Assembly (NCBI RefSeq): GCF_988243305.1
Contig: NZ_OZ547136.1
Strand: one strand, 5' to 3'
DNA: 64,000 nt
In this document: positions 19,007 through 31,848 of the stretch, piece by piece
How the letters are laid out: every line of letters starts with the position of its first letter
Numbering within the stretch: the first letter of the stretch is position 1
Position numbers and translations under genes: made by a program
Notes under the pieces: generated by a model
The model's database searches: none
What the model was told of the DNA's origin: nothing
The model's input: only the letters and a program-made list of their open reading frames with translations

Positions 19007-19022
19007 TACCCCGATCGGGGTA
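19007..19022 (-). promoter_or_regulatory. NarL/NarP 7-2-7 heptamer pair in the napF promoter region
   Basis: Perfect 16-bp palindrome TACCCCGATCGGGGTA about 115 bp upstream of the napF start codon; matches the NarL/NarP inverted-heptamer architecture. An imperfect FNR-like half-site (..GGATCAA, near 19037-19041) lies just upstream. Confidence 0.7.
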
Positions 19023-19300
19023 AAACCTGTAGCAGGATCAAAAGAGTGGCGGGAAGCGTGGCAAAAACGGGCTTTTGCTCACATTTCAAATGGTTATAAA
19101 CATATTTATATAGCGATTAATTCACCAGAGATATTTATGTCGGTTTGTTCTCTCACCAGAATTTAACACTAAAAGAGCAGGTAAAATTGTCTGAATGTTC
19201 TTTAAGTTATTCATAAAGCAAATTAATAAATCTGATGAATATGTTAACCTTCAGCGACATCATCGGTGAAAACCTATAAATGAAGAAGGAAAGCAAAAAA

Positions 19301-19789
19301 ATGAAGACCATTCTACCTGCAGTATTGTTTGCCGCTTTCGCCACCACTTCCGCCTGGGCGGCAGAAAGCGTCCAGCCACTGGAAAAAATCGCGCCTTATC
19401 CACAAGCTGAAAAAGGCATGAAGCGTCAGGTGATTCAGTTAACCCCGCAAGAAGATGAATCTACCCTGAAAGTAGAACTGTTAATCGGCCAGACGCTGGA
19501 AGTCGATTGCAATTTGCATCGTCTCGGCGGGAAGCTGGAAAGCAAAACGCTGGAAGGCTGGGGCTATGATTATTACGTCTTTGATAAAGTTAGCTCGCCG
19601 GTTTCCACGATGATGGCCTGCCCGGATGGCAAGAAAGAGAAGAAATTTGTCACCGCGTATCTGGGCGATGCCGGAATGCTGCGTTATAACAGCAAGCTGC
19701 CGATCGTGGTGTATACGCCAGACAATGTGGATGTGAAGTACCGCATCTGGAAGGCGGAAGAGAAAATTGACAACGCGGTAGTCCGCTAA
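19301..19789 (+). CDS. eco: Ecotin, periplasmic serine protease inhibitor
   Basis: 162-aa product [44 protein letters not shown]; the ORF track starts 7 codons earlier at 19280. Confidence 0.92.
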
Positions 19790-19823
19790 ACTGCCGTGAA
19801 GTGCTCCACCCCGTAGGTCGGAT

Positions 19824-19932
19824 AAGGCGGTCACGCCGCATCCGACATCCAACGCCCGAGCCGGTTGCCTGATGCGACGCTGACGCGTCTTATCTGCATA
19901 CGCCACATCCGGCATACCATGCCGGATGTGGC
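19824..19932. repeat. REP (repetitive extragenic palindromic) cluster between convergent eco and mqo
   Basis: Three REP-like palindromic units (GTAGGTCGGATAAGGCGGTCACGCCGCATCCGACATC; GCCTGATGCGACGCTGACGCGTCTTATCTGCATAC; GCCACATCCGGCATACCATGCCGGATGTGGC). The last has perfect 14-nt arms and abuts the mqo stop. Confidence 0.8.
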
Positions 19933-19938
19933 ACATCA

Positions 19939-21597
<1,659 letters not shown>

Positions 21598-31684: not shown

Positions 31685-31848
<164 letters not shown>

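Follow-up and report, generated by a model that had tools for sequence, protein, structure and literature searches.

The perfect palindrome that follows the mqo stop codon (positions 19902-19932 of the window, by which we mean the whole 64-kb stretch of DNA that was analyzed) is real, and the K-12 transcript ends listed in a published supplementary table support it as functional. Published mapping in K-12 already catalogues it as the point at which the converging transcripts of eco and mqo both end, so that it is known both in kind and in data; its import beyond the locus is small. We consider it likely that the hairpin, which is built from two halves of REP sequences, is a shared and overlapping 3'-end determinant of both transcripts, acting through the release of polymerases by pausing and collision and through protection of the 3' ends.

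The eco-mqo junction

The window comes from an E. coli strain other than K-12; the closest complete genome is that of Z1323HEC0462, which matches at 99.8% over 401 nt. The genes lie in the order napA-napD-napF-yojO-eco, followed by mqo and yojI. The eco gene (plus strand, ending at 19789) and the mqo gene (minus strand) are convergent, and the spacer between them is 149 nt long. The features of the junction are as follows.

19301..19789, plus strand: eco, ecotin, annotated 162-aa frame, convergent with mqo
19813..19847, plus strand: Y-type REP, 35 nt, starting with GTAG, GTAGGTCGGATAAGGCGGTCACGCCGCATCCGACA
19848..19865: tail-to-tail linker of the BIME unit, 18 nt
19866..19901, minus strand: inverted Z2-type REP, TGCCTGATGCGACGCTGACGCGTCTTATCTGCATAC, with a degenerate head (ATAC for CTAC, one base missing)
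19893..19939: predicted overlapping bidirectional transcript-end region, transferred by coordinate offset from K-12 2305063-2305108
19902..19915: arm of the palindrome on the side away from the mqo stop, GCCACATCCGGCAT; holds the E. coli polymorphisms (T>A at 19915 and the CC insertion)
19916..19918: loop of three bases, ACC in the eco sense and GGU in the mqo sense
19919..19932: palindrome arm adjoining the mqo stop, ATGCCGGATGTGGC; its homolog in E. whittamii and E. albertii is the orphan REP tail half after the stop
19936..19941, minus strand: tandem in-frame stops of mqo, TGA at 19941-19939, then TGA at 19938-19936
19939..21585, minus strand: mqo, malate:quinone oxidoreductase, 548 aa

Reading of the sequence, repeat finding, and a pattern search placed the palindrome at the same position, GCCACATCCGGCAT (19902-19915), ACC (19916-19918), and ATGCCGGATGTGGC (19919-19932). 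The arms are 100% complementary, with 14 of 14 bases paired, which bears out an earlier note on this DNA that had described a perfect palindrome with 14-nt arms 3' of the mqo stop. The distance of 7 bp to the stop codon given in that note holds as a difference between coordinates, but the bases between the palindrome and the TGA number six (19933-19938). The tandem mqo stops directly before the hairpin are TGA TGA here, and TAA TGA in K-12 and other Escherichia.

Shuffling the window 100 times with dinucleotides preserved gave no match to the palindrome, even when three mismatches were allowed, and a scan of the whole 64-kb window found no other perfect short-loop inverted repeat with arms of at least 14 nt. 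As RNA, the palindrome folds at -27.8 kcal/mol on either strand. It is the strongest local structure and exceeds the neighboring REP units in stability; the K-12 hairpin folds at -33.6 and -34.0 kcal/mol, and the adjacent REPs overall at -14 to -22 (those in the window at -14 to -20). The hairpin persists on both strands when its 161-nt context is folded (z = -5.6 and -6.1). A search of the palindrome hairpin against Rfam returned no family, the match to mir-1791 at E = 1.9 being noise.

Positions 19813-19901 are a single BIME unit consisting of the Y REP, the linker, and the degenerate inverted Z2 REP. This neighbor is of the BIME-2 type, with inverse Y and Z2 REPs, linkers, and tandem copies that vary in number. 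Between eco and mqo there is one BIME unit here and one, five, or six in other E. coli; there are three in Escherichia sp. E1V33, about 2.5 in E. whittamii, and seven in E. albertii. In K-12, the spacer is 714 nt long and contains six Z2-Y units. The palindrome (or its precursor) is the constant piece at the mqo edge, and the REP array beside it varies. The array resembles REP325/naRNA4 (yjdM-yjdN) in that K-12 has six Z2-Y units as in REP325, and in that the neighboring unit matches the model, although the Rfam naRNA4/REP325 match to 19816-19898 scored 55 bits, under the gathering score of 59.5. REP325 is a terminator and stabilizer in a 3'UTR, a comparison that fits the eco-mqo array and not the palindrome.

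The coding end of mqo (19942-19962, minus strand), GTGGCGGATATTGCG, resembles the head half of a Y REP, GTAGGCCGGATAAGGCG, at 13 of 17 positions with two gaps, and occupies the place expected for the head that the stop-proximal REP half lacks. A REP origin of the mqo C-terminus was rejected: Citrobacter and Enterobacter, which are without the REP-half arrangement, conserve both the VADIAL C-terminus and the DNA encoding it. Because of this conservation, the mqo coding end predates the REPs, and its resemblance to the Y head may be a coincidence or a recombination target.

Relation of the palindrome to REP units

In PMC8266576, the REPs of E. coli are described as imperfect palindromes of 29-37 nt with GTAG in front, a conserved AA/GC bulge, and hundreds of copies, which are dispersed over intergenic regions. 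GTAG is absent in front of the palindrome stem on both strands; the plus strand has CATAC and the minus strand GATGT, and the ATAC found at 19898-19901 belongs to the neighboring Z2 unit as its decayed CTAC. The AA/GC bulge is also absent from the middle of the stem, and matched GT/AC is found at the bulge position. An exact search for the 31-mer gave a single copy in each of 3168 genomes. A relaxed blastn search gave a median of two places per genome (maximum four), where two are most simply both strands of one locus. With one copy per genome, the candidate of a dispersed repeat family was rejected.

Homology to the REP consensus is found in the arms: 13 of the 14 positions of CGCCACATCCGGCA agree with the Y tail half CGCCGCATCCGGCA; the matching stretch is the GCCACATCCGGCAT arm plus the preceding C (19901). 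The polarity is inverted, and the GCCGGAT end, which is the base of a normal REP stem, lies at the loop. Given this inverted polarity, we regard the palindrome as a REP-derived composite and not a REP unit, in which two Y-type tail halves are joined tail-to-tail with a 3-nt spacer. In effect, it is the tip of a BIME/REPIN hairpin that has lost its outer halves. A scan for tail-to-tail half-REPs, which covered about 0.8 Mb of sequence and one 50-kb K-12 segment, found the pattern neither in that unrelated K-12 segment nor elsewhere in the window.

The palindrome had earlier been called the last unit of the eco-mqo REP cluster. One part of this description stands, in that the palindrome abuts the array and is REP-derived. 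Like the E. coli REPs (Y, Z1, Z2), it has the Y tail half in its arms; it also borders a Y-Z2 BIME array, and the corresponding arm in E. whittamii is part of a complete Y REP. The other part does not stand: the palindrome is inverted, has neither GTAG nor bulge, is present in a single copy, and falls outside the annotated REP161 save for 9 nt. A better label should be 'REP-derived half-unit palindrome abutting the REP array'.

The REP transposase TnpA-REP needs GTAG and the bulge, and mutations to a regular stem are reported to have abolished its activity on E. coli REPs (PMC8266576). Given these requirements, the palindrome is predicted not to be a substrate of TnpA-REP. The same features make it very unlikely that the palindrome acts at the DNA level, as a cruciform, a site for gyrase or another protein, or a TnpA-REP substrate. 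It is a perfect DNA palindrome beside a BIME-2-type array, and DNA-level roles have been assigned to REP/BIME elements (PMC8266576); however, both GTAG and the AA/GC bulge are missing, the single copy per genome speaks against mobility, and no promoter-like site was found near the palindrome.

Transcript ends mapped in K-12

The overlapping bidirectional TTS that SEnd-seq defined on NC_000913.3 are listed in Supplementary Table 16 of bioRxiv 10.64898/2026.03.23.713779, a modified version of Supplementary Table 4 in Ju et al. (Nature Microbiology 2019). For eco:mqo, row 365 of this table gives an overlap at 2305063-2305108, UCAGCAUACGCCACAUCCGGCAUACCAUGCCGGAUGUGGCGUAUCAU, in a gap region and in log phase only. 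The row further gives -33.4 kcal/mol, a stem of 18, a loop of 3, and a stem of 18, with two A in the 5' flank and two U in the 3' flank (bioRxiv 10.64898/2026.03.23.713779). Comparison with the K-12 locus identified the row 365 sequence as the K-12 copy of the palindrome. The annotated REP161 overlaps this 46-nt K-12 TTS region by 9 nt only, and these 9 nt would be UCAGCAUAC, with which the last Z2 unit ends.

We read the start of the overlap in row 365 as the 3' end of mqo and its end as the 3' end of eco. The row spans the K-12 palindrome; therefore, on that reading, both transcripts end 3-5 nt beyond the base of the stem, and the eco transcripts of K-12 cross all twelve REPs before ending at the palindrome. 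By transfer of coordinates, the 3' ends in the window strain would lie near 19893-19894 for mqo (minus strand) and near 19939 for eco (plus strand), the source of the transfer being K-12 with an 18-bp stem and six BIME units, and its target a strain with a 14-bp stem and one unit. Row 365, with both transcripts ending just past the hairpin, supports the earlier proposal that the palindrome is the 3' stabilizer or terminator of the mqo transcript and the end point of eco transcription; SEnd-seq does not distinguish a genuine termination event from RNA trimmed to a hairpin that protects it. The supplements of Adams 2021, TERMITe 2025, and RepRanger 2025 contained no entry or coordinates for mqo, and full-text searches for mqo together with REP, terminator, or bicyclomycin gave nothing relevant.

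The palindrome is located in a convergent gap and forms a hairpin on both strands, as is expected of a bidirectional terminator. It shares these two properties with the bidirectional terminators of Ju et al. (2019), among which its K-12 copy is listed, and also the lack of A and U tracts; the K-12 copy further shares the overlapping 3' ends. It differs from them in being built of REP halves and, in its K-12 copy, in being among the most stable listed (-33.4 kcal/mol).

How the ends may arise

Transcription of either strand would produce the same hairpin, of 14 bp in the window strain and of 18 bp in K-12. Each polymerase would pass through the palindrome, and the hairpin would form in the nascent RNA. 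In the route that we favor, release would follow through hairpin-induced pausing and through head-on and rear-end collisions of the polymerases. Any read-through RNA would be trimmed by 3' exonucleases back to the hairpin, both mRNAs would then be protected, and the steady-state 3' ends would come to lie a few nt beyond the hairpin base. That the same ends form in the window strain, and how the ends arise, we infer. The class of bidirectional terminators is described as differing from intrinsic terminators and as Rho-independent; the hairpin traps the polymerases, and head-on and then rear-end collisions release them (bioRxiv 10.1101/2022.10.23.513370). In the collision model (Wang et al.), the mechanism and the Rho-independence are stated for the class, and they are carried to the palindrome by analogy.

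A T run is absent after the stem on both strands, where the tails read ACAUCAUC in the eco sense and GUAUGCAG in the mqo sense. With no U tract, classical intrinsic (Rho-independent) termination is scarcely credible, even though the stem is GC-rich and perfect and the loop is only 3 nt long. The U-rich tract of 7-8 nt that typifies such terminators is missing, a terminator scan of 19200-20300 did not call the palindrome, and at the orthologous site Enterobacter and its relatives show what the real form looks like, AAAAAAGCCGGG...CCCGGCTTTTTT.

The missing U tract also bears on a second possibility, that of a pure processing site, which we rate below the combined pausing, collision, and protection role but still take seriously. 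Transcription of mqo and eco would then end downstream, either by Rho or diffusely, PNPase and RNase II would trim the RNA, and the hairpin would only protect it. Hairpins without a U tract mark ends that are trimmed by exonuclease after Rho termination, and they protect the mRNA (PMC6061677). The eco-mqo stem, with no U tract on either side (two A and two U in the flanks in row 365), matches this behavior of Rho-dependent transcripts, and REP325 acts partly via Rho and as a stabilizer. The protective stem-loops of Dar and Sorek (2018) are likewise stable, free of a U tract, and directly upstream of the steady-state 3' end; for eco and mqo, however, the Rho dependence and trimming that go with them are suppositions. 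On the other hand, the class of bidirectional terminators is reported to be Rho-independent, and REP161 is, among the matches listed, found only in the bidirectional-terminator table and not in the in vitro Rho-binding screen, which is a weak negative. Processing is moreover largely compatible with the main explanation and does not exclude it.

REP arrays, REP325 included, are known as partly Rho-dependent terminators and stabilizers, and REPs between convergent genes have been discussed as bidirectional terminators and as blocks to degradation. The collision, the trimming and protection, and the REP-array frames are mutually compatible, and we favor a combined role in which collision or pausing acts together with a protective stem-loop.

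REPs less than 16 nt from a stop codon have been reported to stall terminating ribosomes and to lower translation (Liang, Rudd, Deutscher 2015, via PMC12306157). The palindrome is within this distance, at 6 nt after the stop in the window and 2 nt in K-12, although it is REP-derived and not a canonical REP, and its stem is stronger than that of a normal REP. The terminating ribosome of mqo might thus have to melt the hairpin, and stalled termination would lower the output of Mqo. We think such a translation brake improbable: a compact convergent spacer gives close spacing too, and the intrinsic terminators of other genera are equally close. It would also be an additional effect, and no alternative to the role at the 3' ends.

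Alleles among E. coli genomes

The allele survey comprised 5426 complete E. coli genomes. The locus-specific palindrome element was present in 5415 of these (99.8%), and three alleles jointly accounted for 99.1% of the genomes.

Exact palindrome: 3168 genomes (58%), predicted -27.8 kcal/mol
T>A at the top of one arm (13 bp, 5-nt loop): 1293 genomes (24%), predicted -27.2 / -28.1 kcal/mol
CC insertion in the same arm as T>A (bulge): 916 genomes (17%), predicted -22.6 kcal/mol

Each of the three keeps -22.6 kcal/mol or better. One-sided changes break the perfection of the palindrome in 41% of the genomes, so the perfect stem is not under strict constraint. Since the major alleles are stable yet often one-sided, a strong hairpin is retained in E. 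coli and perfection is not. Variation is also found at the base of the stem: GGCACAT gives 14 bp, GGCGCAT gives 15 bp (550 genomes), and GGCGTAT, in the K-12 lineage, gives 18 bp (356 genomes, nearly all laboratory K-12). In strain G8, one arm was lost between GCATAC direct repeats, leaving a predicted -8 to -9.5 kcal/mol, and the hairpin is absent from strain SCPM-O-B-8794. The hairpin is dispensable in that these rare strains have lost an arm or the whole element. Together, the three common alleles and the rare losses are a natural series in which the strength of the hairpin can be set against the 3' ends of eco and mqo, mRNA stability, and possibly Mqo translation.

Origin in Escherichia

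Beyond the mqo stop, E. albertii has an orphan tail half, then the BIME linker at its full 20 nt, and then an inverted Y REP that is complete. In E. whittamii this linker measures 5 nt, and the orphan half pairs with the first half of the complete inverted Y REP; this pairing is imperfect, with 12 Watson-Crick pairs out of 14, one G-T pair, and one mismatch. The E. coli and E1V33 forms equal the albertii and whittamii forms minus a 45-nt block, which is bounded by GCGGCGTA direct repeats. Relative to a whittamii-like form, both imperfect pairs are repaired in E. coli and E1V33, and an A-T pair stands in place of one G-C pair through changes on both sides; between E. coli and E. whittamii there is only one compensatory pair change. 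The direction of change suggested by these sequences is that the other Escherichia species keep less derived forms, in which one arm is still within a complete REP.

Template switching at quasipalindromes perfects inverted repeats in E. coli (PMC7202029, PMC5941160). It could explain both the perfection of the stem and the compensatory change without selection. An origin of the 18-bp K-12 stem by a single multi-base template switch was unsupported; the intermediate GGCGCAT exists in 550 genomes, so single steps suffice.

The palindrome might accordingly be regarded as neutral debris of REP/BIME turnover, that is, a by-product of deletion at the edge of the array that was perfected by template switching, with the 3' ends being incidental and any stable hairpin serving equally well. 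Its derivation from whittamii- or albertii-like forms by direct-repeat deletion would fit, as would the variation of the array from 1 to 7 units, the one-sided alleles at 24% and 17%, the existence of loss variants, and the perfecting effect of template switching. We nevertheless hold this to be unlikely. The element is kept at the locus in 99.8% of the genomes with a strong hairpin in every major allele, and every genus examined has a hairpin at the corresponding place, albeit of differing sequence families. Because the hairpin is kept across alleles and genera, debris is disfavored, and a required function can be argued.

The mqo 3' end in other genera

For comparison, 37 loci from other Enterobacteriaceae were found through Mqo. 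A hairpin follows shortly after the mqo stop in all 37, and in nearly all of them it does so within 10 nt. Classical bidirectional terminators with an A tract, a hairpin, and a T tract are present in Enterobacter, Lelliottia, Leclercia, Pseudenterobacter, and two Citrobacter, and canonical REP hairpins follow mqo in most Citrobacter. The intrinsic terminators of Enterobacter, Lelliottia, and Leclercia occupy the same site after the mqo stop and are common to eco. They have A and T tracts, a short GC hairpin, and an unrelated sequence, whereas Escherichia has the REP array and the palindrome. The transcript-end signal thus stays in place while its sequence family turns over: Enterobacter and relatives have an intrinsic terminator there, Citrobacter a REP, and Escherichia the palindrome of REP halves. 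The locus also illustrates that curated REP annotation can miss REP-derived hairpins that do the actual work at the 3' end.

At yfbR-yfbS of K-12 (NC_000913.3, about 2409481-2409503), there is another hairpin made of tail-to-tail REP halves, CGTCGCATCAGGCA-ATAAGC-GCCGGATGCGACA, with a 6-nt linker and no GTAG-bearing heads. The pair yfbR/yfbS is given as row 366 among the overlapping bidirectional TTS, with a REP168 overlap of 18 nt (bioRxiv 10.64898/2026.03.23.713779). This row hints at a small recurrent class. As a speculation that we regard as doubtful, tail-to-tail pairs of REP half-units might form a small, recurrent, and unrecognized class that was exapted as bidirectional terminators without U tracts at convergent junctions; such REPIN tips, being without GTAG and the bulge, would no longer be mobilizable. 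At eco-mqo, such a pair would have taken the place of an intrinsic terminator present in the ancestor, with template switching making its stem perfect.

Additional observations

The sole other REP pair in the window, at 31705-31786, consists of a canonical Y-type GCCGGATGCGGCG...CGCCTTATCCGGC followed by a GCCAGATAAGACG-type head. At 19007-19022, about 115 nt upstream of the napF start, lies TACCCCGATCGGGGTA, a perfect palindrome of 16 bp that looks like the NarP/NarL 7-2-7 site of the napF promoter.

Downstream of mqo in two Pseudomonas species (locus positions 5641-5665), there is a hairpin GTTTGCATCCGGCAG-GGCGA-CTGTCGGATGCAAAC, which has the core CATCCGGCA...TGTCGGATG in common with the Escherichia palindrome; this likeness is probably a coincidence. 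Seven Enterobacter loci contain a second conserved palindromic element, CTCCCTCTCCC-GGTG-GGAGAGGGTTGGGGTGAGGGC, about 40-90 nt after the mqo stop and beyond the intrinsic terminator, which is apparently another intergenic repeat family. In Citrobacter sp. NCU1 (locus positions 5654-5675), an 18-nt imperfect copy of the mqo 3' end (GCAGATATCTTGCTGTAA) lies after the stop and before a classical bidirectional terminator. Two Mqo entries in the database, at 92-93% identity, are E. coli Mqo in which about 45-50 internal residues are read out of frame; they probably reflect compensated frameshifts or errors of assembly, and not sequences from other species.
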